A stretch of 64,000 nt of DNA from Isurus oxyrinchus (GCA_026770705.1 JANJGN010000035.1:6448001-6512000); one strand, 5' to 3'; shown: positions 25,306-64,000, counted from the stretch's first letter. The notes: a model not told the origin generated them from the sequence alone. Program-made: numbers and translations.

Positions 25306-25760
25306 ATTATGCAGACCTATATCAAACTCGTTGTCCCTGCACCTTATGCTCCTATTAATAAAACCTATTATATAGCAAAATTTATTCAGTGATTACTGAA
25401 CCATTTCTCCCTTCTGCATCTTCGTTGATTGACATGACATAGCCCCCAGTTTCTCTGCTCCTGTATTTAGAAATATACTATTCATTGATATTCCCATTCA
25501 ACGTTCGTTCTTCCAAATGAATGACTTAACAGCTCTATGCATTGAGCATTATCTGTTAGTGGACATCTCTTGAACCACCCTGGCTGTATCACTTTGAAAT
25601 AGGTTATGCGTATTCTTCATAAGCTGCAACGCTTTCAAGTTGTGGGCCATAGAAATCAGTCTCAGTCATGACTCTATTTTCTACTGCGACCTGAGAGTCT
25701 TTGGGAAAGCCAAAACTTATTGCCCACACATAACTATTTTTTTCTCAGGCGAAGATGAGC

Positions 25761-26667: not shown

Positions 26668-26699
26668 TTACTCAAATTTCAAAGCAACTCTTAGCAACA

Positions 26700-27975: not shown

Positions 27976-27982
27976 ATGATGC

Positions 27983-28310
27983 AGAAAATTGAATTTGTGT
28001 TTGAGAATGACATAGTCGAGCCCAATCAAAGTAACTGAAATTCGCAGATTGCAATGGTACCAAAGCCGGATGGATGACAAAGGCTCTGTACTGATTACCG
28101 GAAAGTTAACACAGCACCAAAGGCGGGTACATATCCTATTCCATGATTCCTGTTTTGAATCGAGTTTGTGGGACAGTCAGCGTTAATCGCAAAAAAAAAC
28201 TGTTAGGTGCATATGTCAGAAGAACAAAAGAGGCATCAGCTCTGGTGACGCCAGATGCTTTCAATCAATGAGAAGTAATGCCGTAGGAATGAAAAATGCA
28301 TCAACAATAC
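27983..28310 (+). mobile_element. Gypsy RT fragment at the array's left edge
   Basis: ENDIVEPNQSN*NSQIAMVPKPDG*QRLCTDYRKVN...YPIP and VMP*GMKNA correspond to Gypsy RT motifs (SP.V.VPK.DG..R.C.DYRK.N; MPFGMKNAP). Confidence 0.85.
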
Positions 28311-28359
28311 TTCATAAAATACTACTGAAAATATCAATTCAAGATAAATGTCATTTCAC

Positions 28360-28701
28360 TGAATTTGCGCATCCTTATGTCTGTGACTTGGCCTCCAGCC
28401 ATCTCAAAAGACACCTTGGTGCTCCTCTCAGTTCCTGCAATCATATTGTTTATTTCTTTGGTACTCCGATCACCCGAGTAAATTGATACCATTGTTTTAA
28501 CCAATTCCCCTCTTTGAGGTGACATTCTCCCATCGGATGGCTTCTGGGGATAATCACTTGTGTTATCACGCATGGTGTTTACCTCGTCCATTTTTTCACA
28601 AATAACAGCTTGCATAGCCGTGTCTGATGGCATTTTCCTTTTGCCAGGTCCCACATTCCAGTTGTCGGGCTTGGTGGCTCCACACGAATCAATTTTTTGA
28701 T
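28360..28701 (-). pseudogene. Array exon A copy 1 (342 nt, open, weak donor)
   Basis: ctttcag|AT CAA AAA ATT GAT TCG TGT...TTC A|gtgaaa. No stop. Confidence 0.6.
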
Positions 28702-30019
28702 CTGAAAGACATCAAATAATCAGCAGTGAAATTTGACCGATGAGCACTCATGTTACTGGCTGTAAGCCGGATGCGCTCATTTAAAAAAAAACTCTAACTG
28801 GCTCATAGATTTGGTGCCTTACAATTTTAATTATATTCCAGCATTAACAGCTCTCCACCATACTGCATTTTGGACAATAAACATGGCAAATAAACAAAAC
28901 GTTGCCTATGCAAAATGGAGAAGAAGCAACAAGCTAATTAAATTGTGTAAGAAATAAAAGATTTCGTTTTGTAAATAATGGATAATCGCTCAAGCAGTTC
29001 AAACAGAAGTTCGGAGCCCAATCTAAACAAATTGGTTCAGAAACCTGTTGACAGTCAGGACCCATAGAAGGGTGGGGAAGTTCATTTTTCAAAAAATGAA
29101 TTCGAATTCGAAAGCAATAATTGTGCTGAGAGCCTACGAAACCCCATGTCAATTGGGACAATCTTGCACGTGTGTCAGTGAGGAACATAATGTAAGCTTT
29201 AACAAATGAAATTCCAAAGATGGGGAAACTTGGAATGTCTAAATAAAACCAGGTTAATACAAAAGAACAAAAATATATTTTCCTTGTATGAACGCATTAT
29301 CTGATCTTTCTTTCTGGAATGACTTTCAGAAGCTGAAATATTGGATATTGCAAATGTTATTTAAACATGGTGGAATTAGTTCAATTTATCGGATGCATAA
29401 CTTGGTGTATATATTCAGTTATTCATTTATTTTACCCGAAGGTAGAAGCAATCAGAATACCTATGTAATTCTATCAGTTTCGGAACATGGACTTCAGGGA
29501 GGTTCTTAGCAAAATGGAGTTCGAGTTCAAAGTTGAAAAGGATATTTAAATAAATATGTTTAGTTGAGTTCTTTGGGCTATTCAAGACAGATGTTCTGAG
29601 TCCAGCTCTGTGCTGAAAAAAGCCATACATTTCCAACAGCCACCCCGTCTCAAATTCAGTTTTTTTTAATGAACTTCCGTTGTTTCCATAGCAGAGTGAA
29701 TTAGAATTAAAATTCGTGTGGTATATTTTTTTACTAAATTGACAACAGTTTTGCCTTGGGTGATATTACTATACTTTCAGGGTAAGGAATCCACAAGGGA
29801 GCTGTTGCCAACGAGTTTATTTGTGTGTTTTGACCAAGTGGATTTCTTTGGGTGCACATGTTTTGTAAGACTGTCATGCTCTGAAATTTTAATCTTGTGT
29901 GCATACGTTATTTTTTCTTGTTAATACATATTTTAACTATGAAACATTAAGACTGATTCTAGGACTCTGGGATTCCTTTAAAAAGTACAGATAAAGCGCG
30001 ATCAGTAGGAAATGTTTCC

Positions 30020-33000
30020 ACCTGGGATATGGTTTGCATGGCGAATAACATTGGATGCAGTCATGAAAAATTGCTGACTATTTGCCGGATATTACGTTTC
30101 GTGGATTGCTTTCCAGTATGTACATACAGCGGACATGAGTCCCAGGAGCATGCTGAACTCAGGAGATTTGTGTTGAGCGCTCTAAAAGTAGTTTGAAGGC
30201 AGTTGCTTTCTGGGAGTAGAATATGTGACTGTTGAAGTTATGAAAACTTTGCCAAAAACAAACCGGAGAAAATTAGCAGTTAAAGTGCAGTTAGTAATGA
30301 AAGCAAACACTAGTAAAGCTGGTATGGTAAAAAGTATTTGCCACCATTTAAAGAGACTAGAATTCCGTGTGCCCCAAATGAAGGTACAAAAAATTCAATT
30401 GCAAATGAATCATCTTGGCATACAAACAGAGAGGACAAGGCAAAAAGGTGAACTGAAGGAAAGAGTGAAGGAATGAAGGATGTAATGAATAGCATTGGGA
30501 GAAAAAGGAAGTAAAAAGAGAAATGTTGAAATACAACACAAGCAAGAAAGGTTAGGGACAAATTGAAATAATTAGAAATGCAAATAAATTAAAAAAATAA
30601 AATCTTCCATGAAAGAAAGGCTAGGAAGAAATAGAAAGACAAAGTGTGCAATAAATTAAAATTTGATAGCTTGAGTTTTGACATCAGAGGGGGAAGCAGC
30701 TCAGGCAGTAACCCATGGCTTGGTAAAAGTTTGGAACAAAGTAAGGCAAAAGGGGATAGATAATGTTTCGGATGGTGAATTTGATTCGTTTGACGAATTT
30801 GGTTCAACTATGGATCTTCAGTTAGTACCTCAGTTCAAAAAAGATGGAGTTGAAATATATTTGACCTCCTTTGAAAAGATAGCTAGGAAAGTGAATTAGC
30901 ACAGAAATGCTTGATCTTTACCTTTATAGTTTTGTCAGGTATAGCAATTAACGTGAAGCTGGCTTATGAGACCAGTAATCAGTAGACTATGAAGCAGTCA
31001 AAAAAGTCTAGCAAAATGTGCAGCCGTTTATCCTGGTTGAAGCTTAGGAGTGTAAGAAAGCGACATAACCAGGATTTTACAGAGTTTGAACCAATAATGC
31101 TGTAAGTTTCAATACATGTTTTGATGAAAGACTGGTTCAAAAAAAATCAAGGAAGTGCTTACTTAGCCGATAAATCTGATAGCTCAAACTACAGTTGAGT
31201 GCTGGATAAAGAGCATGTGGTGCTACGAGAGTGAATTGGGTGTATATGCAAATTAATGATGGTAAAAATGTTAGTAGTAAGGAGCCAGCTGAAGCAGTTC
31301 AGTCTGCTAAAGACGGAAATATAGAACCCATAGGTGGTGGAGGAAAAGTATATGTAATCATTTGAAAAAAGTTGGACATGCAAGGACAAACTATAGGAGG
31401 TTAAATGTGGAACACATTGCAGTGAAAGAAAATCAAAAGATTTCGACAAGTAAATGTTGTGTGGGCTCTGAGACGCAAGGGTAAGGCAGTCCAGAAACTT
31501 TTATAATATGAGAAGGAAAGAATCAGTTTCGGTAGAGAGGTGGGAATGCGTTCCCAACCTACCCAAGAAAGTTCAGAACAGCAAGTTACAAAGATGTTTA
31601 AAGATGGCATATACCATGGGAATGTAAATCCTTGTGTTACAGGAAGAGCAGGGAAGACCACTAAGACCTTAAAAATGCAGGGACTAACTATTCATTATTG
31701 TTACGGCATCGTGCCATTTCCTGTTCATGTTGGTTATTGTAGGTGAAAGTGTTAGTTATTGGTATACATGGTGAGGGTGACCAGGAACCGGGGTTGGGGG
31801 AGGTGTGGTGTTGGAGTATTGAAAGTCAAGGTCATTTCGATACATAAAGTAAATTAAAGAAAAACAAACAAGCGATGAGAAATCAGGAGATGTGAGTGCT
31901 GCATTAGTAGCGAAATTTCGCGTTACATGTGTTCAAATTATTATAAGAAATGTAATAGCTGGATCTCAAATACTGATTTTGATTGCTGAAATAAAGGTAC
32001 ATTAAAAATTCAATAAACAGAGGCTTTACAGAAATAGCATTCTGGGTTGATTCCAGATTGTGAGGTGACGAACTCATAGATACACATACTTAAACAGGAA
32101 GCGGAAAAGTATGAAATACAGTTCGAGGAGACTCATGATCATTTGGGCGGATCTACCTTTGAAAATATAAGTTAGTAGTAGACATTGGCGCAGATGAAGA
32201 TGAAACGTTAATTTCCTCAAAATAAGTGCAGTTACAGCAGCAAAATGCACGTTTAAAGCTATTATGACGGACAGTTTTTCTTCAGAAGCTAAAGTGATTT
32301 TGCTTCCAAGGTTTAATTATGGAAAAAAAAACAACGTATTTTTGAAGAAATGGAGACCACTTCATGTCACAGCAGTGGGCGATAGTGCTCAGAGTTTTGT
32401 AATATCTGTGAACCAGAATGTAATTTTAGGAGATGCCCATGAAATCTCAATAGAAGAAGATTTATGATTTGGGAAAATTCAAGCAAAGTTGCAACAAAAC
32501 AAATCTATTGAGCTCGATAATATAAAGATGTAGTTAAATTTTATCAAACATGTAAGACATGTCAAGTGATGTGAAGATCTCAAACAGTAATTAAAGCTGC
32601 GCCTTTGATTCCAATTCTAGCAATTAAGCAAGCTTTTATCAGGATCTTCGTTTATTCTGTGGGACCCTGCCATAAGTCCAAACATTGAAAAAACTATTTA
32701 ATGAAAATCATTGATGTGCCTGTGAGAATTCCAGAAGCAAACCCGTCCGGGAGAAATACAACAAAGTTGATTTTGGAGGAGAAGACCAAATTGTTTGCAT
32801 GTCCTGGTTAGGAAAATACATACAATCGGATAAGGGGTCAAATTTCATGTCATAGCTGGTCAGACGAGTAGTGAAAAGGCAGTCTAGAATAATGCAATTA
32901 AGATTATAAATCTATCATGGTGGATCAGAATGCTGGTTATAAAAGTCGCATTATACTCGGAGGACAATGAGCTGATGTGCATATTGAAGAAAACCACTTG

Positions 33001-33470
33001 TTTGTAATAGAGTGATTCGATTCTTGTTGCTTGCTATTAAGGGCTCCCCTAATATATCAACAGGGTTCTGGCCTTTGCAATTAACTGATGAACATGAAGC
33101 AAGAGGGCATTTCAAATTGATTCAGGAGAAATTAGTAAACCAATGGACTCGATTGCGGAGGGCAATTGAATGTGTGCTTGAGACTGACGAAATTGAGCCC
33201 AATCAAAGTAACTGAAATTCGCCCATTGCAATGTTACCAAAGCCGGTTGAATGACAAAAGCTATGTACTGATAACCGGAAAGTCAACGTAGTAACAAAGG
33301 CGGGTACATATCTTATTCCACAATTGATGTTTGAATGGAGCTTGTGGGGGAGGCAGCATTAATCACAAAAGTTGACATGCTGCGAGGACACTATTAATTG
33401 CACTTGTCAGAAGCGTCAAAAGTGATGAACGTGAAGTAATGCCGTAGGAATGAAAAATGAATCAAAAATA
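30020..33470 (+). mobile_element. Gmr1-like Gypsy remnant 1 (LTR end, gag, PR, IN, partial RT; ~630 bp deletion)
   Basis: gag LVPQFKKDGVEIYLTSFEKIA; integrase AHE, APLIPI, QSDKGSNFMS and FLLLAIKGSPN.STGF; RT motifs after IN. All frames broken. Confidence 0.85.
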
Positions 33471-33520
33471 ATTCATAAAATACTACTGGAAATATCAATT
33501 CAAGATAAACGTACGCTCAC

Positions 33521-33853
33521 CCAACATTCGCTTCCTTATGTCTGCAACTTGGCCTCCAGTCTTCTCAACACGCACAATGGTGCTACCCTCAGTTCCTGCC
33601 ATCATATAGTTTATTTCCTTGCCACTCAGATGACCTTAGAAAACGCATACCAAATTTTTAAACTGTCCTCCCCTTTGAGGTAACATTTTCCATTCGGATG
33701 GCTTCTGGGGATATTCACTCGTGTTATTAGGCATGGTGTTTACCTCGCCCCCTTTTTCACAAATAACATTTTGCTTTGCCGTTTCTGAGGGCATTATCCT
33801 GTTGTTCGGTCTCACATTCCAGTGCTCAGGCATGGTGGCTTCACTTGAATAAA
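33521..33853 (-). pseudogene. Array exon A copy 2 (333 nt; in-frame 9-nt 5' deletion; one TCA>TAA stop)
   Basis: cttttag|TT TAT TCA...TTG G|gtgagc. Stop at 33636-33638. Confidence 0.65.
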
Positions 33854-34572
33854 CTAAAAGATATCAAATGCTCAGCATTGAAATTCGACCGATTAGCACT
33901 CATGTTACCGGCTGACAGTAGTTTGGGCACATTGAAAAGAAACTCTAATAGCCTCATAGATCTGATGCCTTACAAATTTCATTATATTCCAGCATTAATA
34001 GCTCTTCACCATGCTGAATTTTGGACAATAATCAGGACAAATAAACGAAACTTTACCTATATAAAATCTGGAAAAGGAAACAGGTTAATTAAATCTTGTA
34101 AGAAATAAAGGATTCCGTTTTGTAAATAGTGAATAATCGCTTAATCAGTTCAAACCGAAGTACAGAACTCAATCTAACCAAAATGATTCAGAAACCTGTT
34201 GACAGTCATGGCCCATAGACGGGTGGGGGAGTTCATTTTTTTAAATAAATTCCAATTTGCTTGTGCTGAGAGCACACGAAACCCCATGTCAATTGGAACA
34301 AACTTGCACGTGTGTCACTCAGGAGCATAAAGTAAAAATTAACACATCAAATTCCAATGATGCATAAAACTGCAATGTCTAAATAAAACCAGTTTAATAG
34401 AAGAGAGCAAAAATATACTTTGCTTGCATGAACGCAATACCCGATCTTTGTTTTCTGGAAGGACTTTCAGAAGTTGAAATATTGGAAAATGTTAATGTTA
34501 TTTAAAGGTGGTGAAATTATTTCAATTAATCGGATGCTTAACTGGGTGTATATATTCAGTTATTTACTTTAC

Positions 34573-35114
34573 CCGAAGGTAGAAGCGGTCGGAATACCTA
34601 AATGATTCTATAAATTTGGGAACGTTGAGTTCAGGGAGGTTCTTAGAACAATGGAGTCCATATCATAGGGGAAGAGGATATTTAATGAAATATGTTTGGT
34701 TGAGCAGTTTTGGCTAGGCAAGAGAGTTGTCCTGAGACCAGCTCTGTGCTGAGGAAAGCCATGCATTTTTAGCAGCAACCCAGTCTCAACTTCACTTTGT
34801 TTCCGAACTTCTGTTGTTTCCATAGCAGAGTGAATTAGAAGTATAATTCGTGTGGTATATGTTTTGGTAAAGTGACAGCAGTTTTGCCTTGGGTGATATT
34901 AGTATGTTTTCATGCTAAGGAATCCATAAGGGAGCTGTTGCCCAGGTTACTTGTGTGTTTTGACCAAGCGGATTTTTTTGGGTGTACATGTGTGTGCCAC
35001 TGTCATGCTGTGTAATTTTAAACTTATGTGCATAATTTATTCTTTCTTGTTAATACATATTTTAACCCTGAAACCTTAAAACTGCTTCAAGAACTCTCAG
35101 ATTCGTATAAGTTC
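34573..35114 (-). pseudogene. Array exon B (representative copy; decayed, ~540 nt)
   Basis: Acceptor tttttctttattttgtaaatgaag|GA and donor CGG|gtaaag. Recurrent ORF METTEVRKQSE.ETG..LK.HGF.QHRAGLRT. Homologous donors at ~29436, 40652, 46718, 52495 and 58287. Stops and shifts in the copies translated. Confidence 0.45.
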
Positions 35115-35160
35115 CTTCATTTACAAAATAAAGAAAAAGAGCCATCAGTTAGAAATGTTT

Positions 35161-38100
35161 CCACCTGGGATATGGCTTGCACAGAGAAAAATATTGGCTG
35201 CCGTCATAAAAAAAATGTGGACTGTTTGCCGGATGTTACGTTTGGCTGATTGCTTTCCAGTTTGTGCATACAACGGACACTAGTGCCAGGAGCATGCTGA
35301 AATCAGGAGATTTGTGTTGAGCGCTCTAAAATAGTTTGACGGCAGTTGCTTTCTGGGAGTAGAATACTCACTGTTGACGTTTTGAAATCTTTGCCAAAAA
35401 GAAAGCGGAGGAAATTAGCAGGTAAAGTGCAGGTAGCAATGAAAGGAAACACTTGTAAGGCGAGTATTGTTAAAATTATTTGCCACCATTTAAAGAGACG
35501 AGAATTCTGTGTGCCCCAAATGAAGTTAGAATAAATTCAATTGCAAATGAAGCAGCTTGGCATACAAACACAGAGGAGAAGGCAAAAAGGTGAACTGAAG
35601 GAAAGGATGAAGTAATGGACGATGTCATGAACAGCATTGGAAGAAAAAGGAAAAAAAATAGAAATGTTTAAATACAACACATGTAAGACAGATGGAGTTA
35701 AAACAGGTTTGGGACAAATTGAAATAAACAGCAATGCAAATAAATTTTGAAAAATATCTTCAATGAAGAAAGTGTAGGAAGAAATGGAAAGACAAAATGT
35801 GCAATAAATTAAAATATGTTAGCTTGAGTTTTGACATCAGAGGGGGAAGGAACATAGGCAGTAACCCCTGGCTTGGTAAAAGATTGGAACAAAGTAAGGC
35901 AAAAGGGGATAGATAATGAATTTAATTCGTTTGAGGAATTTGGTTCAACTAAAGATCTTTGTTAGCACCTCAGTTCAAAAAAGGAGTTGAAATATACTTG
36001 ACCACCTTTGAAAAGATAGCTAGGAAAGTGAATTCGCACTGAAATGCTTGATCTTTACTGTTATAGATAGTTTTGTCAGGTATAGCAATTAATGCGAAGC
36101 TAGTTTATGACAGGAACCATCAGCAGACTACGAAGCTGTCAAAAAAGTCATGCCAAATGCGTAGCTGGTAATCCTGGTTGAAGCTTAGGAGTGTAAGAAA
36201 AGGACATATTCAGGAATTTACAGATTTTGAAACCAAAAATGTTGCAAGTTTCAATACATATTTAGATGAAAGACTGGTTCAAAAAAAAATCAAGGAAAAT
36301 GCTTACTTAGCCGATAGCTATGATAACTCAAATTACGGTTGAGTGCTGAATAAAGATCATGTGGTGCTCAGATAGTGAATTGGGTGTATATGAAAATTAA
36401 TGATGGTAAAAATGTTAGTAATAAGGAGCCAGCTGAAGAACGGCAGTCTGCTACAGACGGAAATCTGGAAACCATAGGTGGAAGTAGGGAAGTGTATGTG
36501 ACCTTCTGATAAATGTTGGACATGCAGGGACAAACTATTGGAGTTTAAATGTGGAACCCATTGCATTGACATAAACTCAGAATAGTTCGACAAGTAAAAG
36601 TTTTGTGGGCTCTGAGACGCAAGTGTAAGGCAGTCCAGAAGCTTTTAGAATGGTGAGGAAGAAAGAATCAGTTTTAGTAGAGAGGTGGGAATGCGCTCAA
36701 AACCTACCAAAGAATGTTCTGAAGAGCAAGTTACAAAGATGTTTAAAGATGGCATATGCCATGGGAATGTATATCCTTGTGATACAGGAAGTGTAGAGAA
36801 GATCATTAAGACCTTAAAAATTAGGCTTCTAACTATGCATTATTGTTATGGCATCGTGCCATTTGCTGTTCATGTTGGCTATTGTAGGAGAACGTGTTAG
36901 TTATTGGTATACATGGTGGGGGTGACCGGGGGCCAGGAAGGGAGTGGGAGTGGGGGTGGTGTGGGGGGGGGGGGGGGGGGTGGGGGGAGTGGTGCTGGCG
37001 GGTGGGAGGTGGGCGTGTGGGGTGATGAAATTCAAGGTCATTTCGATAGATAAAAGTAAATGAAAGGAAAAAAACAAACAAGCGATTTGAAATCAGGAGT
37101 GGTGACTCCTGCATTAGTAGAGAAATTTCCCATTGCATGTGTTCGAATTATTATAAGAAATGTAATAGCTTGATCACAAATATTGATTTTGATTACTGGA
37201 GTAAAGGTACATTAAAGATGCAATAAACAGGGGCGTTACGGAAATAGCATTCTGGGTTGATTCCAGATTGTGAGGTGACGAACTCATAAACACACAAAGT
37301 TAAACAGGAAGGGAAAGAGTATAAAATACAGTTCGAGGAGACTCATTATCATTTGGGCGGATCTATCTTTGAAAATATAATTCCGTAGCAGACGTTGGCG
37401 AGGATGAAGATGAATCGTTAAGTTCCTCAAAGTAAGTGCAGATACAGCAGCAGAGTGCACGTTTAAAGCCGTTATGACGGATGGTTTGTTTTCAGAAGCA
37501 AAAGCGGAATGCTTTCCTGGATTTAGTTACCATAAAAAAACAAAGTGTTAATGAAGAAATGGAGACCACTTCATGTCGCAGCAGTGGGAGATAGTGCATC
37601 AAATTATGATAACATCTGGGAACCAGAATAGAATTTTGGGAGCTGCTCATGAAAGCTCAACGGAAGAGCATTTATGATTTAGGAAAAATCAAGCAAAGAA
37701 GCAACAAAAATAATCTATTGACCTCGATGTAGTTAGTTTCTATCAAACATGTTAGATATGTAAAATGATATGAAGATCTCAAACATTAATTAAAGCTGCA
37801 CCTTTAACTCCAATTCTAGCAATTAAGGAAACTTTTATCAAGATCTTCGTTTATTGTTTAGGACCCTTCCATAAGTCTAAGCATTGAAATCACTATTTAA
37901 TAAAAATCATGGATGTGCCTAAGAGAATTCCAGATGCAAACCCTCCAGGGAGAGGCACAACAAAGTTGATTGTTGATAAGAAGACCAAATTGTTTGCATG
38001 ACATGGTTAGGAAAATAAATACAATCGGATAAGCGGTCGAATTTCATGTCATAGCTGGTTAGACGAGTAATGAAAAGACAATCCAGGAATAATGCAATTC

Positions 38101-39545
38101 AGATTATTAAACTATCATGGCAGATCAGAATGCCAGTTATAAATGTAGCATTATACTTGGAGGATAATGATCTGATGCGCATAGTGAAGACAACCCAGGT
38201 GTTTGTAAAAGAGTGACTCGATTCTTGTTGCTTGCTATGCGGGGCTCCCCTAATCTATCAACAGGGTTCTGGCCTTTCCAATTAACTGATCAACATGAAG
38301 CAAGAGGGCATTTCAAATTGATTCAGGAGAAATTAGTAAACCAATGCACTGAAACACATTTCCAGGATTATGTGATTAAATTCAGAGAAAGATTGATTTG
38401 TGCATGAGAACTAGCTGGAGAACTATGAACAATATCACATTAAATGATGAAATCAAATTTGGGCAAAAAGGCAAAGAGTCGTTGTTCTGTGCCTGAGGAC
38501 ATGGTGTTATCATTGTTGCTGGTTTTATGATAACCGTTATAAGCAATGTATAGTTGATATTAAGAGGTTGAAAAGATTCTGAGTGTGTGGAACTACGCAG
38601 TTAATGCCCAAGGTCGAAGGAATTGTCAAAGAATGTGCCATGCAAACATGCTAACAGGGTACTTTGCCAGATAAGATAAGCAGAAATAGAAATTGGTAGT
38701 GATAAGTAAGGAGAAGGAAGCAGGAATTAGAAATTCTGAAATTGACTTCCCACTGATTACATTAGCCAATGAAAAAGTACTTCAAATGTAAATGTGATGA
38801 TTTAATTACATTCAAGAAAACTGTCGAAGTGATTTACAAGAACTATTGGAATCACATGAAGCAATTTCTGGAATCTGACCCGGAAAGGAAAAAAAATCAT
38901 AACTTTTGTATGATGATGACATGGGGAATTATTTTCCAATAAGGCAACACCCATATAGAACAAATACAGGAAAATGGACTCGAGCCCGGAGAGAAGTTGA
39001 ATGTGTTCTTGAGAATGACATAATCGAGCCGAATCAAATTAACTGAAATTCGCCCATTTGAATGTTACCAAAGCTGGTGGAATGACTAAGGCAATGTATT
39101 GATTACCGGAAAGTTAACGTAGTAACAAAGGCGTGTACATTTCCGATTCCACAATTGGTGTTTGAATCGAGCTTGTGGGGAATCAGCGTTAATCATAAAA
39201 GTGGACTCGCTGCGAGGACACTGTTAATTTCACTTGTCAGAAGCGTCAAAAGTGGTATCAGCTTTGGTGACGCCAGATGCTTTCTATCAATGTGAAGTAA
39301 TGCCGGAGGAATGAAAAATGCATCAACAATAATTCATAAAATACTCCTGGAAATATCAATTCAAGATAAAATACGTACATGTCCTATTCCACAATTGATG
39401 TTTGAATGGAGCTTGTGGGGGAGTCAGCATTAATCATAAAAGTTGACACGCTGCGAGGGCACTGTCAATTATACTTGTCAGAAGCGTCAAAAGTGATGAA
39501 CGTGAAGTAATGCCGTAGGAATGAAAAATGAATCCACAATAATTC
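35161..39545 (+). mobile_element. Gmr1-like Gypsy remnant 2
   Basis: Same domain series. RQHPYR at ~38942 and DYRKVN at ~39101 lie downstream of the integrase motifs. Confidence 0.88.
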
Positions 39546-39591
39546 ATAAAATACTACTGGAAATATCAATTCAAGATAAAAGTACGCTCAC

Positions 39592-39933
39592 ACAACATTC
39601 GCTCCCTTATGTCTGCGACTTGGCCTCCAGTCTTCTCAACAGGCACCATGGTGCTCCCCTCAGTTCCTGCCATCATATAGTTTATTTCCTTGCCAATCAG
39701 ATGATCTGAGAAAACACATACCGAATTTTTAACCTGTCCCTCATTTTGAGGTGACATTTTCCAGTTGGATGACTTCTGGGGATATTCGCGTGTCTTATTA
39801 GGCATGGTGTTTAAATCGCCCCCTTTTTCACAAATAACATTTTGCTTTGCCGAGTGGGATGACATTTTCCTGTTGCCGTGTCTCACATTCCAGTTCTCAG
39901 GCATGGTGGCTTCACTTGAATAAACTTTTTGAT
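39592..39933 (-). pseudogene. Array exon A copy 3 (342 nt, open; acceptor AG>GG)
   Basis: cttctgg|AT CAA AAA GTT...TTG T|gtgagc. Overlaps ORF 39566..39904. Confidence 0.6.
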
Positions 39934-45605: not shown

Positions 45606-45656
45606 AATTCATAAAATACAACTGGAAATATCAGTTGAAGATTAAGTTAATCTCAC

Positions 45657-45998
45657 CCAACAATTGTTCACTTATGTCTGTGACTTGGCCTCCAGTCTTC
45701 TCAACAGGCACCATTGTGCTCCTCTCAGTTCCTGCCATCATATAGTTTATTTCTTTGGGACTCAGATGACCTGAGAAAACCCATGCCAAAGGTTTAACCT
45801 GTCCCCCACTTTGAGGTGACATTTTCCAGTCGGATAGCTTCTGGGGATATTTGCTTCTGTTATCAGGCATGGTGTTTACCTCGCCCCCTTTTTCACAAGT
45901 AACATTTTGCTTTGCTGTGTCTGATGGCATTTCCCTGTGGCCAGGTCTCACATTCCAGTTCTCAGGCATGGTGGCTTCACACAAATAAACTTTTTGAT
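45657..45998 (-). pseudogene. Array exon A copy 4 (342 nt, open; acceptor AG>AA)
   Basis: cttttaa|AT CAA AAA GTT...TTG G|gtgaga. Overlaps ORF 45631..45984. Confidence 0.6.
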
Positions 45999-47304: not shown

Positions 47305-50300
47305 TCCATCAGGGATATGGCTTGCACAGTGAATAACGTTGGCTGCAGTTATAATAAAAATGTGGACGGTTTGCCGGATGTTATATTTCGTTGATTGAAT
47401 TCCAGTTTCGGCATAAAACGCAGATGAGTGCCAGGAGCATGCTGAACTCTGGAGATTTGTGTTGAGAACTCTAAAAGTTGTTTGACGGCAGTTGCTTTCT
47501 GGGTGTAGAATATGTGACCGATGAGCTTTTGAAAACTTTGGCAAAAACAACGCAGAATAAATTAGCAGGTAACGTGCAGGTAATAATGAAAGGAAAGACT
47601 TGTAAGGCGGGTATGGTACAAAGTTTTTGCCACCATTTAAAGACACGGGAATTTTGTGTGGCCCAACAGAAGGTAGAATGAATTCAATTGCAATTGAAGC
47701 AGCTTGGTATACAAAAAGGGAGGACAAGGCAAAAAAGTGAACGGAAGGAAAGAGGGAAGGAGAGAAGGATGCATTGACTGGCATTGGGAGAAAAAGGGAA
47801 AAAAAAGAGAAATGTTAAAACGCAACACAAGCAAGACAGATGGAGTTAAAAAGTTTAGGGACAAGTTGAAATAAACAGAAATACAAATACATTTAAAAAA
47901 AATATATTCAATGAAAGAAAGTGCAGGATGAAATAGAAAGACAAAGTGTACAATAAGTAAAAAGGTGATAGCTTGAGTTTGACATCAAAGGGGGAAGGAG
48001 ATCACGGAGTAATCCCTGGCTTGGGAAATGATTGGAATAAAATAAAACAAAAGGGAATAGATAATGAATCAGATGGTGAATTTGATTTGGTTGAAGAATT
48101 TGGTTCAACTGACGAATTTCGGTTAGAACCTCAGTTCACAAAAGTTGGAGTTGAAATATAATTGACCTCCTTTGAAAGATAGCTAGGAAAGTGAATTACT
48201 CCAGAAATGCTTGATCTTTACTGTTAAAGATAGTTTTGTCAGGTATAGCAATTAATGGGAAGCTAGCTTATGAGAGGAGCAATCAGCAGACTACGTAGCC
48301 ATCAACAAGGTCATACCAACTGCTTAGGAGTTTGTCCCGTATGAAGCTTCTGAGTGTAAGAAAGCGACATAACGAGAAATTTAGAGGGGTTGAAACCATA
48401 TTGCTGTAAATATCAATACATATTTAGATGACAGACAGGTTTAAGATATGAAGGAAAATGCTTACTTAGCCATATTTAAGGTGGCTCAAACTACGTTTGA
48501 GTGATGGGGAAAGGTCATGTGGCGCTCAGATAGTGAATTAGGTGTATATGATAATTAGTGATGGTCAAAATGTTAGTAACAATAAGCCAGCTGAAAAAAC
48601 GTCAGCCTGCAATAGAAGGAAATCTAGAACCCATAGGTGGATGAAGAAAAGTAGATGTTACGATTTCAAAAATATTGGACATGCAATGACAACTATTGGA
48701 CGTTAAAAGTGCAACCCATGGCAATGATAGAAACTAAGAAGAGTTCGACAAGTAAAAGATCTGTGGGCTCTGCGAAGCAAGTGTAAGGCGGTCCAGACGC
48801 CTTTTATAATGGTAGAGAGGTGGGAATGCGCCCACAAAATACCCAAGAAAGTTCTGAAAAGCAAGTTACAAAGATGTTTAAAGATGGCATATGCCATGGG
48901 AGAGTATATCGTTGTGATAGAGGAATTGCAGAATAGACCATTAAGGCCTTGAAAATACAGGGACTAACTATTCATTATTCATATGGCATCGTGCCATTTC
49001 CTGTTCATGTTGGTTATTGTTGGAGAAAGTGATAGTTCCTGGAATACATGGTGGAGGTGACCGCAGGCCTTGGGGAGGGGTGGGCGGGGTGTGGGGTGAT
49101 GACGTTCAAGGACATTTCAATAGATAAAGTAAACTAAGCAATAAAAAAACAAGGAAATTGAAATCAGTAGAAGTTTGTCCTGCTTTATTAGAGAAATTTC
49201 GCATTGCATATCTTCGAATTATTATAAGAAATGTAATGGCTGGATCACAAATATTGATTTTGATAACTGGAGTAAAGGTACCTTAAAGCTGCATTAAATT
49301 GAGGCTTTTCAGAAATAGCATTCTGGGTTGCTTCCAGATTGTGAGGTGACGAGTTCATAGATACACATACTTAAACAGGAAGGGAAAGAGTTCAAAATAC
49401 AGTTCGAGGAGTCTCATGATCATTTGAGCGGATATTTCTTTGATAATATGAATCAGTAGTATACGTTGGCGAGGTATGAAGATGAATCGTTAAGTTCCTT
49501 AAAGTAAGTGGAGTTACAGCAGCAGAATGCACGTTTAAAGCTGTTATGGCAGAAAGATTTTTTTTCAGAAGCGAAAGCGGAATGGTTTCCAGGGTTTAAC
49601 TACCGTAAAAACAATGTGTTAATGAAGAAATGGAGACCAATTCATGTCGCAGCAGTGGGCACAAGTGGATTAAATTGTGATAACATCTGGGAACCAGAAT
49701 GGAATTCTGGGAACTGCTCATGAAATGTCAAATGAAGAGCATTTATGATTTACGAAAACTCAAGCAAAGATGCAAGAAAAAATAATCTATTGACCTCGAT
49801 AACATAAAGATGTAGTTAAAGTCTATCAAACATGTAACACATGTCAAGTGATATGGAGGTCTCAAACGTAATTAAAGCTGCGCCTTTAATTCCAATTCCA
49901 GCAATTAAGGAAGCTTTTATCAGGATCTCCGTTAATTGTGTATGACCCCTCCATAAGTCTAAACATTGAAATCACTAACTAATGACAATCTTGCATGTGC
50001 CTTTGAGAATTTCAGAAGCAAACCCTCTAGGAAGAAATACAGCAAATTTGATTTTGGAGGTGATGACCAAATTATTTGCATGATATGGTTAGGAAAATAA
50101 ATACAATCGCATGAGCAGTCGAATTTCATGTCATAACTGGTTAGACGAGTACGGAAAAGACAGTCTAGGAATAATCCAATTCAGAATACAAAACTTCTGC
50201 CGTGGATCAGAATGCCTGTTTTAAAGCTAGCATTATACTTGGAGGACAGTGATCTGATGCACATAGTCAAGACAACCCACATGTTTGTAATGGAGTGATT

Positions 50301-51412: not shown

Positions 51413-51462
51413 ATTCATCAAATACTCCTGGAAATATCAGTTCAAGATAAAAGTACACTCAT

Positions 51463-51804
51463 CCAACATTCACTCCCTTAAGTCTGTGAGCTGTCCTCCA
51501 GCCATCTCAACAGGCACCTTGTCACTCCTCTCAGTTCGTGCCATCAGATCGTTTATTTCCTTGGGACTCAGACGACCTGAGAAAACCCATACCAAATTCT
51601 TAAACTGTACCCGTCTTTGAGTTGACATTTCGCAGACTGATGTCTTCAGGCGGCTTTCGCTTGTGTTATCAGGCATGATGTTTACCTCGCCACCTTTTTC
51701 ACAATTAACATTTTGCTTTGTTGTGTCTAATCATATTTTTCTGTTGCCGGGTCTCACATTCCAGTCCTCAGGCATGGTGGCTTCACACGAATAACCTTTA
51801 TGAT
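51463..51804 (-). pseudogene. Array exon A copy 5 (342 nt; two TGA stops; donor GT>AT)
   Basis: cttttag|AT CAT AAA GGT...TTG G|atgagt. Confidence 0.6.
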
Positions 51805-56000: not shown

Positions 56001-57225
56001 AACTTCTGCCGTGGATCAGAATGCCTGTTTTAAAGCTAGCATTATACTTGGAGGACAATGATCTGATGCACATATTCAAGACAACCCACATGTTTGTAAT
56101 GGAGTGATTGGATTCTTGTTGCTTTCTATTTGGGGCACCCCTAATGAATCAATAGGGTTCTGTCTTTTCCAATTAACTGATAAACATGAAGTAAGAGGGC
56201 ATTTCAAATTGATTCAGGAGAAATTAGTAAACCAATGCACTGAAAAACATTTCCGGCACTAGGTGGCTAAATTCCTAGAACGATTGATTTTTGCATGTGA
56301 ACTAGCTAGGTAACTTGTAAAGATATCACTTTAAATGATGAAATCAAATTTGGGCAATAGGGCAAAGGCTCGCTGTTCTGTGCCTGAGGCCATTTTGTTA
56401 TCTTTGTTGCTCGTTTTAGGACGACCATTATTAGCAATGTGTAGATGATATTAAGAGGTTCAAAAGAGTTTCACTGCGTGGAACTGCACAGTTAATGCCC
56501 AAGGTAGAACGATTTGGCAAAGAATGTGTCATGCAAATATGCTAATAGCGTACTTTGCCAGATAGGATAAGCAGAAATAGATATTGGTAGTGGTAAGTAA
56601 GGAGAAGGAAGCAGAAATTAGAAATTCTGAAATTGACTTGCCACTGATTACATTGGCAAATGAAAAAGTATTTAGAAATGTAAAAGTGATTATCAGTTAC
56701 ATTCCACAAAACTGCCAAAGTGATTTACTAGAACTATTGCAATCACACGAAGCAATTTCTGGAATCAGACCCGGAAATAAAAAAGAAAAACATAACTTTG
56801 CATGATGATGACATGGGGATTTATTTTTCAATAAGGCAACACTCATATAGATTAAATACAGGAAAATGGACTCGAGTGCGAAGAGATGTTGAATTTGTGC
56901 TTCAGAATGACATAATCGAGCCAATCAAAGTACCTGAAATTCTCTCAATGCAATGGTCTCAAGGCCGGATGAATGATTAAGGCTATGTATTGTATACCGG
57001 AAAGTTAATGTAGTAACAGAGACGAGCACATATCCTATTCAACAATTGACGTTTGAATCGAGCTTGTGGAGGAATCAGCGTTAGTCCCAAAAGTTGACTC
57101 GCTTCGAGGACATGGTCAAGTGCACTTGTCAGAAGTGTCATAAGAGTTATCAGCTTTGGTGACGCCAAGTTTTTTCTATTAACGTGATGTAATGCCGTAG
57201 GAATGAAAAATGCTGAAACAATAAT
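53083..57225 (+). mobile_element. Gmr1-like Gypsy remnant 5
   Basis: Colinear and very similar to remnants 4 and 6. Confidence 0.88.
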
Positions 57226-57273
57226 TCATATAATACTCCTGGAAATATCAGTTCAAGATAAAAGTACGCTCAC

Positions 57274-57615
57274 CCAACATTCACTCCCTTAAGTCTGTGA
57301 GCTGTCCTCCAGCCATCTCAACAGGCACCTTCTCACTCCTCTCAGTTCGTGCCATCAGATCGTTTATTTCCTTGGGACTCAGATGACCTGAGAAACGCCG
57401 TACCAAATTCTTAACCTGTACCCGTCTTTGAGGTGTCATTTCGCAGTCGGATGGCTTCTGGCGGCATTCGCTTGTGTTATCAGGCATGGTGTTTACCTCG
57501 CCCCGTTTTTCACAATTAACATTTTGCTTTGTCGTTTCTAATGTTATTTTTCTCTTGCCGGGTCTCACATTCCAGTCCTCAGGCATGGTGGCTTCACACG
57601 AATAAACTTTATGAT
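57274..57615 (-). pseudogene. Array exon A copy 6 (342 nt; splice sites intact; CGA>TGA near the end)
   Basis: cttttag|AT CAT AAA GTT...GAG TGA ATG TTG G|gtgagc. Confidence 0.65.
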
Positions 57616-58872
57616 CTAAAAGATATCAAACGCTCAGCATTGAAATTCGACCGATTAGCACTCATGCTATTGGTTGACAGTGTGTTTGGCTGATTAAAAA
57701 AAAAATCTAATTGCCTCATTGCTTTGATGCCTTACAATTTTCATTATATTCAACAGAATGAATTTTGGACAATAAACCAAACAAATAAATGTAACTTTAC
57801 CTATATAAAATGGGGAAGAAATAACAGGCTAATTAGATCGTGTAGGAAATAAGGGATTCCGTTTATAAATGGTGAATAATCGTTTGATCAGTTCAAACAG
57901 GATCTTAGGGCTCAATCTTAACAAATTGTTTCAGAAACCCATTGACATACATGGCCCATCGAAGGGTGGGGGAGTTCATTTTTAAAATAAATTCGAATTT
58001 GCTTGTGCTGAGAGCACACGAAACCCCATGTTAATTGGAACAAACTTGCACAGTTAACAAATCAAATTCCAATGATGTGGAAAATTGGAATTTTAAAATA
58101 ACACCAGGTTAATAGAAGAGAGCAAAAATATAATTTACTTGCATGAACGCAATATCTGATTTTTTTTTTCTGGAATGACATCAGAAGCTGAAATATTGGA
58201 CACTGTTAATGTTATTTAAGGGTGGTGAAATTATTTCATTTAATCTGATGCATAACTGGGTCTATATATTCATTTACTTATTTTACCCGAAGGCAGAAGC
58301 AGTCGGAATACCGACCTCATTCTCACAATTAGGGAACATTGAGCTCAGGGAGGTTCTTAGAAGAATGCATTCCAAGTTCATAGGGGAAGAGGGTATTAAG
58401 AGAAATATGATTATTTGAGCCGTCTTGGCTAGATAACAGAGATGTCCTGAGACCGGCAGTCTGCTGAGAAAAGCTGTTATTTTCAACAGACACCCAGTCT
58501 TAAGATCACTTTGTTTCCGAACTTCCGTTGCTTCCACAGCAGAGTGAATTAGAAATAAATTCGTGTGGTGTACGATTTGCTAAAGTGACAGCAGTTTTGC
58601 CTTCGGTGATACTACTATGTTTTCAGGTTAACCAATCCGTAAGGGAGCTGTTGTCGAATTTAATTGCGTGTTTTGACCAAGTGGATTTGTCTGGGTGTAC
58701 AAGTATTGTAACACTGTTATGTTGTAATTTTAACCTTGTGTGCATTAGAAATATTTTTTTTGTTAATACTTATTTTAACTATGAAACCTTAAGACTGATT
58801 CAAGGACTCTGGGATTCGTATATGTCCCTTCCTTTGCAAAATACAGAAAAAGCACAAACAATTAGAAGTGTT

Positions 58873-61800
58873 TCCACTTGGGATATGGCTTGTAGAGCGA
58901 ATAACTTTGGCGGGAGTCATAAAAAAAAGTGGACTGTTTGCCGGATATTACGTTTCGTTGATCGCTTTCCAGTTTGTGCATACAACGGACATGAGTGCCA
59001 GGAGCATGCTGAACTCTGGTGATTTGTGTTGAGCGCTCTAAAAGTTGTTTGATGGAAGTTGCTTTCTGGGTGTAGAATATGAGACTGATGAGCTTTTGAA
59101 AACATTGACAAAAACAACGCAGAATAAATTAGGAGGTAACGTGCAGGTAATAATGAAAGGAAAGACTTGTAAGGCAGGTATGGTACAAAGTTTTTGCCAC
59201 CATTTAAAGACACGAGAATTTTGTGTGCCCCAACAGAAGGTAGAATGAATTCAATTGCGATTGAAGCAGCTTGGGATACAAAAAGGGAGCACAAGGCAAA
59301 AAAAGTGAACGGAAGGAAAGAGGGAAGGAAAGAAGGATGCATTGAATGGCATTGGGAGAAAAAAGAAAAAAAAAAGAGAAATGTTAAAACGCAAGACAAG
59401 CAAGACAGATGGAGTTAAAAAGTTTAGGGACAAATTGAAATAAACAGAAATGCAAATACATTTAAAATTGTATATTCAATGAAAGAAAGTGCAGGAAGAA
59501 AAAGAAAGACAAAGTGTACAATAAATAAAAATCTGGTAGCTTGAGTTTGGACATCAAAGGGGGAAGGAATTAACGTATTAATCCTTGGCTTGGGAATAGT
59601 TTGGAATAAAATAAAACAGAAGGGAATAGATAGTGATTCAGATGGTGAATTTGATTTGTTTGAAGAATTTGGTTCAACTGACGAATTTCGGTTAGAACCA
59701 CAGTTCAAAAAAGTTGGAGTTGAAATATACTTGACCTCCTTTGAAAGATAGCTAGGAACGTGAATTACTCCAGAAATGCTTGATCTTTACTGTTAAAGAT
59801 AGTTTTATCAGGTATAGCAATTAATGTGAAGCTAGCTTATGAGAGGAGCAATCAGCAGACTATGAAGCCATCAACAAGGTCATACCAACTGCTTAGGAGT
59901 TTGTCCGGTATGAAGCTTCTGAGTGTAAGAAAGCGACATAACGAGAAATTTAGAGGGTTTGAAACCATATTGCTGTAAATATCAATACATATTTAGATGA
60001 CAGACAGGTTTAAGATATGAACGAAAGTGCTTACTTAGCTAATATTTATGGTGGCTCAAACTACAGTTAAGTGATGGGGAAAGGTCATGTGGCGCTCAGA
60101 TAGTGAATTAGGTGTATATGATAATTAGTGATGGTCAAAATGTTAGTAACAATAAGCCAGCTGAACAAACATCAGCCTGCAATAGAAGGAAATCTAGAAC
60201 CCATAGGTGGTGGAAGAAAAGTATATGTTACAATTTGAAAAATGTTGGACATGCAACGACAAACTATTGGAGGATAAAGGTGCAACCCATTGCAATGATT
60301 GAAACTAAGAAGAGTTCGACAAGTAAAAGTTCTGTGCGCTCTGAGAAGCTAGTGTAAGGCAGTCCAGAGGCCTTTTATAATGGTGAAAAATAAAGAATCA
60401 GTTTTGGTAGAGAGGTGGGAATGCGCACACAACCTACCCAAGAAAGTTCTGAAAAGCAAGTTACAAAGATGTTTAAAGATGACATATGCCATGGGAGAGT
60501 ATATCGTTGTGATAGAGGAATTGCAGAATAGAACATTAAGGCCTTAAGAATACTGGGACTAACTATTCATTATTCATATGGCATCGTGTCATTTCCTGTT
60601 CATGTTGGTTATTGTTGGAGAAAGTGCTAGTTCTGGAATACATGGTGGTGGTGACCGCAGGCCTTGGGGAGGGGTGGGCGGGGTGTGGGGTGATGAAGTT
60701 CAAGGACATTTCGATAGATAAAGTAAACTAAGCAATAAAAAAAACAAGGAAATTGAAATCAGTAGAGGTTTGTCCTGCTTTATTAGAGAAATTTCGCATT
60801 GCATATCTTCGAATTATTATAAGAAATGTAATGGCTGGATCACAAATATTGATTTTGATAACTGGAGTAAAGGTACCTTAAAGCTGCATTAAATTGAGGC
60901 TTTTCAGAAATAGCATTCCGGGTTGCTTCCAGATTGTGAGATGACGAGTTCATAGATACACATACTTAAACAGGAAGGGAAAGAGTACAAAATACAGTTC
61001 GAGGAGTCACATGATCATTTGAGCGGATATTTCTTTGATAATATGAATTAGTATTATACGTTGGCGAGGTATGAAGATGAATCGTTAAGTTCCTTAAAGT
61101 ATGTGGATTTACAGCAGCAGAGTGTTCGTTTAAAGCTGTTATGAGAGAAAGATTTTTTTTCAGAAGCGGAATGGTTTCCAGGGTTTAACTACCGTAAAAA
61201 CAATGTGTTAATGAAGAAATGGAGACCAATTCATGTCGCAGCAGTGGGCACAAGTGGATTAAATTGTGATAACATCTGGGAAGCAGAATGGAATTCTGGG
61301 AACTGCTCATGAAATGTCAATGGAAGAGCATTTATGATTTACGAAAACTCAAGCAAAGATGTAAGAAAAAATAATCTATTGACCTCGATAACATAAAGAT
61401 GTAGTTAAAGTCTATCAAAAATGTCACACATGTCAAGTGATATGGAGGTCTCAAACATTAATTAAAGCTGTGCCTTTAATTCCAATTCCAGCAATTAAGG
61501 AAGCTTTTATCAGGAACTTCGTTTAATGTGTATGACCCCTCCATAAGTCTAAACATTGAATTCACTAATTAATGACAATATTGGATGTGCCTTTGAGAAA
61601 TTCAGAAGCAAACCCTCTAGGGAGAAGTACAGCCAAGTGGATTTTGGAGGTGATGACCAAATTATTTGCATGACATGGTTAGGAAAATAAATACAATCGC
61701 ATGAGCATTCGAATTCCATGGCATAGCTGGTTAGACGAGTACGGAAAAGACAGTCTAGGAATAATGCAATTCACAATATAAAACTTCCGTGGTGGATCAG

Positions 61801-63000
61801 AATGCCTGTTTTAAAGCTAGCATTATACTTGGAGGACAATGATCTGATGCACATAGTCAAGACAACCCACATGTTTGTAATTGGGTGATTGGATTGTTGT
61901 TGCTTGCTATTTGGGGCTCCCCTAATGAATCAATAGGGTTCTGTCTTTTCCAATTAACTGATAAACATGAAGCAAGAGGGCATTTCAAATTGATTCAGGA
62001 GAAATTAGTAAACCAACGCACTGAAAAACATTTCCAGGACTAGGTGGCTAAAGTCCTAGAACGATTGATTTTTGCATGTGAACTGACTAGGTAACTTTTA
62101 AAGATATCACGTTAAATGATGAAATCAAATTTGGCCAATAGGGCAAAGGCTCGCTGTTCTGTGCCTGAGGCCATGGTATTATCATTGTTGCTCGTTTTAG
62201 GACGACCATGATTAGCAATGTGTCGATGATATTAAGAGATTCAAAAGAGTTTGAGTGTGTGGAACTACGCAGTTAATGCCCAAGGTAGAAGGATTTGACA
62301 AAGAATGTGCCATGCAAACATGCTAACAGCGTACTTTGCCAGATAGGATAAGCAGAAATAGATATTGGTAGTGGTAAATAAGGAGAAGGAAGCAGAAATT
62401 AGAAATTCTGAAATTGACGTCGCACTGATTACATTGGCCAATGAAAAAGTATTTAGAAATGTAAAATTGATAATCAGTTACATTCCAGGAAACTGCCAAA
62501 GTGATTTCCCAGAACTGTTGCAATCACACGAAGCTATTTCTGGAATCAGACCCGGAAATAAAAAAAAACATAACTTTGCATGATGATAACATGGGGAATT
62601 ATTTTTCAATAAGGCAACACTCATATAGATTAAATACAGGAAAATGGAGAGTGCGGAGAAATGTTGAATTTGTGCTTGAGAATGACATAATCGAGCCCAA
62701 TCAAAGTACCTGAAATTCTCTCAATGCAATGGTCCCAAGGCCGGATGAATGATTAAGGCTATGTATAGATTACCGGAAAGTTAATGTAGTAACAGAGGCG
62801 AGCACATATCCTATTCAACAATTGATGTTTGAATCGAGCTTGTGGGGGAATCAGCATTAGTCCCAAAAGTTCACTCGCTTCGAGGACATGGTCAAGTGCA
62901 CTTGTCAGAAGTGTCATCAGAGGTATCAGCTTTGGTGACGCCAGGTGTTTTCTATTAACGTGAAGTAATGCCGTAGGAATGAAAAATGCTTAGACAATAA
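58873..63000 (+). mobile_element. Gmr1-like Gypsy remnant 6
   Basis: Colinear. IRQHSYRLN...ENDIIEPNQS in ORF 62501..62713. Confidence 0.88.
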
Positions 63001-63049
63001 TTCATAAAATACTCCTGGAAATATCAGTTCAAGATAAAAGTACGCTCAC

Positions 63050-63391
63050 CAAACATTCGCTCCCTTAAGTCTGTGAGCTGTCTTCCAGCCATCTCAACAG
63101 GCACCTTGTCACTCCTCTCAGTTCGTGCTATCAGATCATTTATTTCCTTGGGACTCCGATGACCTGAGAAAAGCCATACCAATTTCTTGAACGGTACCCG
63201 TCTTTGAGTTGACATTTCGCAATCGGATGGCTTCTGGCGGCATTCGCTTGTGTTATCAGGCATGGTGTTCACCTCGCCCTGTTTTTCACAATTAACATTT
63301 TGCTTTGCCGTGTCTAATGGTATTTTTCTGTTGCCGGGTCTCACATTCCAGTCCTCAGGCATGGTGGCTTCACACGAATAAAGTTTATGAT
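63050..63391 (-). CDS. Array exon A copy 7: open 342-nt phase 1-1 exon with both splice sites intact (product unknown)
   Basis: gatatcttttag|AT CAT AAA CTT TAT TCG TGT GAA GCC ACC ATG CCT...CGA ATG TTT G|gtgagc. 114 codons, no stop. Expression not demonstrated. Confidence 0.4.
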
Positions 63392-64000
63392 CTAAAAGAT
63401 ATCAAACGCTCAGCATTGAAATTCGACCGATTAGCACTCATGCTATTGGCTGACAGTGTGTTTGGCTGATTAAAAAAATAAAATCTAATTGCCTCATCGA
63501 ATTGATGCCTTCCAATTTTCATTATATTCCAGCATTTACAGCTCTTCAACAGAAAGAATTTTGGACACGAAATCGAACAAATAAATGTAACTTTACCTAT
63601 ATAAAATGGAGAAGAAATAACAGGCTAATTACATCGTGTAGGAAATAAAGGATTCCGTTTATAAATGGTGAATAATCATTTAATCAGTTCAAACAGGATC
63701 TTAGGGCTCAATCTTATAAAATTGTTTCAGAAACCCGTTGAAATCCCCCATCGAAGGGTGGGGGAGTTCGTTTTTAAAATAAAATCGAATTTGCATGTGC
63801 TGAGAGCACACGAAACCCCATGTTAATTGGAACAAACGTGCACGTGTGTCAGTGAGGAGCATAACATAACGTTAACAAATCAAATTCCAATGATGTGGAA
63901 AATTGGAATTTTTAAATAACACCAGGTTAGTAGAAGAGAGCAAAAATATACTTTGCTTGCATGAACGCAATAACTGATCTTTTTTTCTGGAATGACATCA

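Follow-up and report, generated by a model that had tools for sequence, protein, structure and literature searches.

Seven exon copies on pieces of a dead LTR retrotransposon probably record an N-terminal repeat expansion in a lost shark NLR gene

Introduction

How does a gene come to carry head-to-tail copies of one of its exons, each packed together with the remnant of a dead retrotransposon, and did the gene ever use them? These questions are raised by a 64,000-nucleotide stretch of Isurus oxyrinchus DNA (the window), in which multi-kilobase tandem units fill the sequence from position 27983 to the right edge. We examined the structure of the units, the way they multiplied, the gene they arose in and the reading frame of the exon that they carry.

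Results

Tandem units continue past the window

When the window was compared with itself, repeats on the plus strand, spaced 5.2-6.3 kb apart, appeared from 27983 to the right edge. When the sequence was extended by 40 kb on the left and 80 kb on the right (184 kb, with no run of Ns), the array that spans 27983..64000 continued to 67291 (extended window coordinates), ending 3,291 bases beyond the window's right edge. It consists of 6.8 head-to-tail units: U1 (27983-33159), U2 (33160-38990), U3 (38991-45277), U4 (45278-51070), U5 (51071-56882), U6 (56883-62657), and U7 (62658-67291), which lies partly beyond the window. Self-comparison, unit alignment and rightward extension thus bear out the at least 6.2 head-to-tail copies proposed in a sequence-only reading of this DNA.

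The units are 5.2-6.3 kb long and, among U1-U6, 81.5-95.6% identical in pairwise comparison; 633 nt are deleted from U1, and U3 contains two insertions, each of ~250 nt. Divergence between units is graded from 4% to 18%, with close similarity only in the youngest three. The locus therefore has the head-to-tail multi-kilobase layout of the ~5.8 kb macrosatellite that it had been called, but its units, at 81-96% identity, are far more diverged than those of a homogenised macrosatellite. Tandem Repeats Finder, which is blind to periods above 500, returned four short rows for the window.

Short-read contigs from run X1, possibly the assembly's own sample, showed 0-1 differences from the flank and from U1-U3; their depth was 20-30 and similar in units and flank. 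Contigs from a second organism, of a related species (organism B), covered the flank and U1-U3 with ~4-10% differences. Read depth was examined from U1 to the start of U4; for a second individual, depth was near 1.

Each unit joins host DNA to a truncated LTR element

One unit comprises ~1.07 kb of host DNA, ~0.65 kb of truncated LTR and ~4.1 kb of internal sequence. Taking U2 as an example, the host segment (33478..34562, minus strand) contains 43 nt of downstream intron, the exon and ~700 nt of upstream sequence, with a donor-like site ~203 nt above the acceptor. Next come a 5′-truncated LTR (34563..35212, plus strand), which retains the last 650-680 of ~1010 nt, and a decayed internal region (35213..39548, plus strand), where gag/protease are assigned by position alone, integrase lies at ~37680-38660, and the 5′ part of reverse transcriptase (RT) is present. 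The truncated LTRs of the other units start at 29426, 40642, 46708, 52486, 58278 and 64095, all on the plus strand, and the internal region of U3 contains a 240-nt local duplication. RNase H and the 3′ LTR are absent from the units. Instead, the 5′ part of RT runs up to the host junction, and this internal end is joined, with no evident homology, to host DNA 43 nt below the exon donor.

We searched the 5.0-Gb genome with the 1.7 kb of the unit that had been read as non-TE sequence. Of the 40 places scored among 1245 candidates, 11 were on the array's own contig (C35, on which the window spans 6448001-6512000) and matched the host part, and 29 were dispersed, matching only the last 480 nt. The stretch matched by the dispersed places is LTR, because a dispersed copy on C2 has two full LTRs there (~1010 nt each, 81% identical, with TG..CA ends). 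The same copy has a primer site and a target-site duplication. Array units align to this LTR only from position ~330 on, representing the 3′ two thirds of one LTR, and we agree with the earlier reading that no full LTR separates the units. A minus-strand segment at 52494-52787, considered as host coding sequence, was rejected, as it lies within the LTR and has frameshifts among copies.

Pfam matched 7 of 18 fragments of the dispersed relatives in the order integrase H2C2, rve, p58-C, RVT_1 and RNase H, placing integrase upstream of RT and RNase H; none of the 79 scored stop-free fragments of the array itself (79 of the 103 listed) had a match. Array units align to these relatives at about 70%. 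Gmr1 elements are described as having integrase ahead of RT (PMC8220671). The likeness to this Ty3/gypsy clade lies in the domain order of an LTR-bearing element, and the array copies differ in being truncated and dead. In total, the element makes up ~4.7 kb, or ~80%, of each unit. Thus, the previously proposed ~4.1 kb plus-strand remnant was correct in kind but too short, and of the 1.7 kb taken to be free of transposon sequence, ~1.07 kb is host DNA and ~0.65 kb is LTR.

In the integrase-RT region, array copies are 77-97% identical to one another; identity is 81-85% among dispersed copies and 68-72% between the two sets. Nine of nine indels common to all seven array copies, relative to at least five of six dispersed copies, were not multiples of three. 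These shared lesions, the existence of which had also been noted earlier, indicate that this LTR element, with domains in Gmr1 order, was dead before the first duplication.

The array probably grew in steps

The unit recurs at 75-79% identity in two other blocks of C35, block B (6.847-6.857 Mb) and block C (7.456-7.462 Mb), with about two units in each. In the host part, U1 clusters with the copies in these blocks and has, as they do, AAG instead of ATG, which puts at least two units before the triplication of the block.

Within the array, trees differ by segment. U5, U6 and U7 cluster in the host and LTR parts, while U4, U5 and U6 cluster in the internal part. U4 becomes U5/U6-like within 47400..47500, the crossover zone of the youngest triplication, and U7 stops being U5/U6-like at 64790-64890. 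These switches imply a recent triplication of one segment that is a unit long but offset from the unit boundary, a pattern that unequal crossover in register would produce. Divergence among the older units is 14-18%. Since copies made in one rolling-circle burst would all have the same age, the graded ages argue for stepwise growth. U2-U7 radiate almost star-like in the trees.

The host was likely an NLR gene

The host segment was confined to C35, its 11 places (of the 40 scored) falling in three blocks with common flanks. The left flank shared with blocks B and C (20159..27990) aligns at 79-84%. In block B, a broken minus-strand NACHT exon and two LRR exons have the units on their 5′ side, in the same orientation. 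Block C, where the units have this same position and strand, retains both LRR exons but only the 3′ half of NACHT. At the array, the left flank tracks block B up to 27990, where the array begins. Relative to block B, the junction (27983..27990) is a deletion of ~7.7 kb that held the NACHT exon and the two LRR exons. Downstream same-strand NACHT and LRR exons are thus broken in B and C and deleted in the array block. Because the same unit occurs 5′ of NACHT-LRR pseudogenes in both B and C, the host of the array exon was likely an NLR (NACHT-LRR) gene. Among the pieces listed for organism B, one 89-nt contig bridges the deletion junction; this single contig suggests that the deletion is older than the split between the two species.

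C35 is an NLR-rich contig, with 12 of 46 NACHT-fragment matches. Apart from B and C, the nearest NACHT matches were 30-38% identical, and we therefore found no intact member of this NLR subfamily. The ten best matches of a neighboring intact NACHT protein were shark NLRs. The intact NLR at 105885-111162 (extended coordinates) was rejected as the host, as a stop closes its final exon ~38 kb short of the array. Another intact NLR, at C35:9.70-9.73 Mb, has an ATG exon (259 coding nt, phase-1 donor), a phase-1 exon and NACHT; we read the phase-1 exon as death-fold-like, and it had no such match in Pfam. The array exon is equivalent in position to this ATG exon, with marginal sequence similarity that is not the best within 80 kb. 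An older, paralogous NLR remnant on the minus strand (12300..14400), in which we found no NACHT, contains at ~13460-13990 a relative of the array exon that is frameshifted and at ~12510-12675 a death-fold-like exon that is broken. These comparisons support the earlier idea of exon amplification but change its object: what was multiplied is one exon from the 5′ (N-terminal) end of the gene, not a set of internal ones, and at this locus the NACHT and LRR exons are gone.

Each unit carries one symmetric exon

Where several minus-strand exon-like segments per unit had been proposed, we found only one of coding type. It is 342 nt long in six of seven units and 333 nt in U2, in phase 1-1 with splice sites, and its length is a multiple of three, so tandem copies would stay in frame. 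All copies are on the minus strand. U1 (28360..28701) is open and has AAG where U2-U7 have ATG. U2 (33521..33853) has an in-frame 9-nt loss at the acceptor and one stop. U3 (39592..39933) and U4 (45657..45998) have both lost the canonical acceptor AG and have an in-frame AG 9 nt downstream; each is open despite the loss. U5 (51463..51804) has two stops and has lost the donor GT, and U6 (57274..57615) has one stop, which it shares with U5. U7 (63050..63391) is open, with both splice sites canonical. Overall, the donor GT is kept in six of seven copies and the canonical acceptor AG in five of seven.

The predicted products are 114 residues long, 57-72% alike, and rich in K, S, E, G, T, P, and N; we call them low-complexity by composition only. 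A protein search restricted to longer proteins gave 58 candidates, none at E 0.1, a four-row profile had no matches among 1.84 billion representatives, the best score in an Atlas search (0.86) was not meaningful, and no Pfam family matched. Nor is the exon a piece of NACHT. Two older relatives of the exon, at ~60% DNA identity, lie in block B (a 133-codon open frame) and at 13460-13990. Among the sequencing runs listed, no RNA run contained this DNA. A single presumed-RNA run had zero depth over the exon bins, which is uninformative either way.

The exon was kept in frame while its sequence drifted

We compared frameshifting indels in the exon with those in the rest of the unit. The seven exon copies contained none, while each of 11 windows of equal size in the remainder of the unit had 4-11 (mean 6.45; Poisson P 0.0016 for zero). 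Outside the exon, none of 3574 sliding windows was free of frameshifts. The longest frameshift-free run in the unit (465 nt, among 84 events) covers the exon; the next longest is 251 nt. The homopolymer content of the exon is that of the rest of the unit, and the same exon is frameshifted in paralogous copies B1 and C2.

Stop codons were also few. In a neutral simulation, 7.8 stop positions were expected in the exon copies and three were present (P 0.03 for three or fewer), and four of the seven copies (U1, U3, U4, and U7) were open (P 0.06 for at least four). These stop-codon tests are biased, as the exon was noticed partly for being open; the indel test is independent of stop codons. Depletion of both frameshifts and stop positions is the pattern expected of an exon repeat array under selection on its reading frame.

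Amino acid sequence followed a different pattern. The exon's dN/dS was 0.96 (pairwise 0.65-1.76), and its three codon positions diverge alike, as in neutral DNA. Exon distance was 0.178 (0.153-0.205), compared to 0.147-0.164 in four other parts of the unit, which does not demonstrate positive selection. Together, these data suggest that selection preserved the reading frame of the exon but not its amino acid sequence.

The U1 exon of organism B has an 8-nt deletion in three of three runs. At the neutral rate, three disrupting events would take up 0.12 (0.02-0.35) of a total tree length of 0.57. This rough date suggests that constraint on the frame ended late, at about the time when the two species split. 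The recent stops, the frameshift in organism B and the NACHT/LRR deletion suggest that the gene at the array locus is now dead.

Discussion

The model that we favor, with a probability of roughly 0.68, is that the seven exon copies on dead LTR pieces record the expansion, via unequal crossover, of an N-terminal repeat in an NLR gene that has since died. The first step would have been the insertion of a Gmr1-type element, in antisense orientation, on the upstream side of the exon. Its LTR would then have lost the 5′ third and the element decayed, leaving the lesions that all copies share. A non-homologous duplication then presumably joined mid-RT to a point in the intron 43 nt past the exon, creating the junction that defines the unit. 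Flanks and units indicate that the whole gene block next triplicated along the contig, carrying at least two units. Unequal crossover would have added further units in steps, as the mosaic units suggest, with the element remnant serving as passive homology. If the phase 1-1 copies were spliced in tandem, up to ~800 low-complexity residues would have preceded the death-fold and NACHT, and the pattern of indels and stops is that expected if frameshifts and stops were purged and missense changes tolerated. Finally, the deletion would have removed NACHT and LRR before the species split, with stops and splice-site losses accumulating afterwards. We infer that the exon belonged to the NLR transcript and that the deletion ended selection on it.

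A different use of the exon copies is conceivable, though we think it unlikely. The units could be 5′ cassettes, each with a promoter, a short untranslated exon and an ATG exon, that supplied alternative first exons to a shared death-fold-NACHT-LRR body. Such first exons, each spliced to one shared body, occur at the clustered protocadherin and UGT1A loci. Consistent with cassettes, U2-U7 have an ATG in strong context 29 nt into the exon, and the older remnant (at 13990) has one in the equivalent position. All seven units also contain a donor-like site (GT in six) 185-205 nt upstream, and the positionally equivalent exon of the intact relative starts with ATG. However, the ATG is lost in U1, B1, and C2, yet U1 is open throughout, and none of the seven copies has a stop or a break of frame in the 29 nt that precede the ATG, where the U2 deletion measures 9 nt. 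Loss of one alternative out of seven would also be cheap, which fits less well with zero frameshifts. The lost ATG in open U1 and the in-frame leader modestly favor tandem inclusion over cassettes. It is also improbable that the array grew neutrally inside an NLR gene that was already a pseudogene, with chance and ascertainment accounting for the clean frame. The dN/dS of 0.96 is as this would predict, both paralogous genes are broken, the array block has lost NACHT, three of seven copies contain stops and U1 is frameshifted in organism B. What neutral growth explains poorly is that the exon falls within the longest frameshift-free run of the unit, by a test that does not depend on stops, and that the same exon does acquire frameshifts in B1 and C2.

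At the other extreme, the locus could be a living gene without NACHT, whose open copies yield a short or repeat-only decoy product: U1, U3, U4, and U7 are open, and U7 has an ATG and both canonical splice sites. We give this little credence, since U6 and U5, next in splicing order, contain stops, flank alignments reveal no conserved downstream coding exon, and U1 is frameshifted in organism B. Least probable, and largely refuted already, is that the array arose by transposition of a composite element, in a rolling-circle burst or through misassembly, although the unit is mostly retrotransposon and the near-star-like trees of U2-U7 could be read in this way. A composite element is contradicted by a host part that is never dispersed among the places scored, by copies elsewhere that share flanks, and by a dead element with neither RNase H nor 3′ LTR; graded divergence (4% to 18%) and mosaic units contradict a burst; and short-read contigs that match U1-U3 with 0-1 differences at flank-like depth, as well as the units in organism B, contradict an artefact. 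Of the earlier alternatives of unequal crossover or rolling circle, the mosaics of U4 and U7 thus leave stepwise unequal crossover. The same reading's view that amplification occurred at the DNA level after the element's death agrees with the shared lesions, the common junction and the restriction of the host part to paralogous blocks. Its contention that the locus is not a cluster of transpositions is likewise sustained, as we found no whole dispersed units with target-site duplications among the scored candidates.

Parts of the array history resemble known systems. The kringle IV type-2 (KIV-2) VNTR of LPA is a protein-coding tandem array with a 5.6 kb unit, and its copy number sets the number of protein repeats (PMC11462820). 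The likeness is one of multi-kilobase, coding-type tandem units inside one gene. However, the KIV-2 repeat is a folded domain, whereas the array exon is low-complexity by composition with a dN/dS near 1. KIV-2 units are near-identical; those of the array are 4-18% diverged and 80% one dead LTR element, and their gene lacks its core. RNU2 and TAF11-like macrosatellites have multi-kilobase units with a piece of LTR retrotransposon beside host sequence (PMC5687341), as here, but their units hold a whole gene or ORF and those of RNU2 are homogenised, while the array units each hold one exon-like segment and are not homogenised.

In cartilaginous fishes, NLRP-related NLRs have expanded as NACHT-HD2-LRR genes in a birth-and-death cluster (PMC8455134). 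The array locus is similar in its clustered NACHT-LRR genes, putative members of that clade, and the available text of PMC8455134 mentions no N-terminal exon array. In the open-access literature, we found no report of such an array in shark NLR genes, which is weak evidence of absence. The "tripwire" regions of NLRP1 and CARD8 are fast-changing N-terminal segments on innate sensors (PMC7857732, PMC10249858). They offer an analogy only, as the array exon has no demonstrated FIIND domain, cleavage site or positive selection.

By this analogy, the array may have been a "bait array" of up to seven 114-residue unstructured modules, in frame and with sequence free or pushed to change, although we regard this as a long shot. 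If so, the modules would have offered varied targets to pathogen proteases or effectors in front of the sensor, in tandem or as first-exon cassettes, and related species may keep a working version. The array locus itself is likely a relic. If a relative keeps NACHT attached, the function of the repeat becomes testable.

The array also serves as a dated record, from first junction to recent triplication, of how an intronic dead retrotransposon became spacer and recombination substrate, with two paralogous control loci. It points to undescribed NLR variation in cartilaginous fishes, in which an orphan N-terminal exon was multiplied under selection for frame only.

Penelope-like elements and an associated short repeat

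A short repeat of very high copy number, associated with Penelope-like elements, occurs at window positions 41969-42220, 11510-11613 and 23933-24070 and, in extended coordinates (window numbering carried beyond both ends), at 67292-68072. One copy lies inside the third array unit, U3, and another at the array end. Contigs from a short-read run presumed to be RNA accumulate on this repeat. The Penelope-like elements at extended 86700-100500 and 137250-140030 (stretches L008 and L003-L007) are young, 90-97% alike and have long open frames; the one at 137252-140029 spans 926 codons.

Broken and apparently intact NLR genes

On the plus strand at extended -1057 to 3155 (end of stretch L009 to window 1-3155) lies a broken NLR gene, with a frameshifted NACHT exon and LRR exons. 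In a third NLR remnant, on the minus strand at window 12300-14400, the array exon has an old relative, accompanied by a broken death-fold-like exon; NACHT was not found in this remnant, and a genome search returned it as a single copy. Another old relative lies in block B, a paralogue of array block A, on the minus strand 5′ of the block-B units (L015:2946-3344). About 60% identical to the array exon and still open over 133 codons, it is missing from block A and from block C, the other paralogue. The N-terminus of P0008, an NLR from another shark species, carries short tandem peptide repeats. Judged from this protein, therefore, repeat-bearing N-termini are recurrent in this NLR subfamily.

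Two NLR genes on the same contig, both on the minus strand, appear intact. The compact one (G000:C35:6553885-6559162, extended 105885-111162, L004-L005) has a 583-codon NACHT exon, two LRR exons and a terminal exon; comparison with a shark NLR gave 55%. The second (G000:C35:9707749-9728515, L050-L052) comprises a low-complexity ATG exon, a death-fold-like exon that had no match in Pfam, and a 606-codon NACHT frame. Elsewhere in the genome, near-identical open NACHT frames of 588 codons occur on many small contigs (G000:C55, C62, C65, C87, C133 and others). These frames are a large, young NLR expansion.
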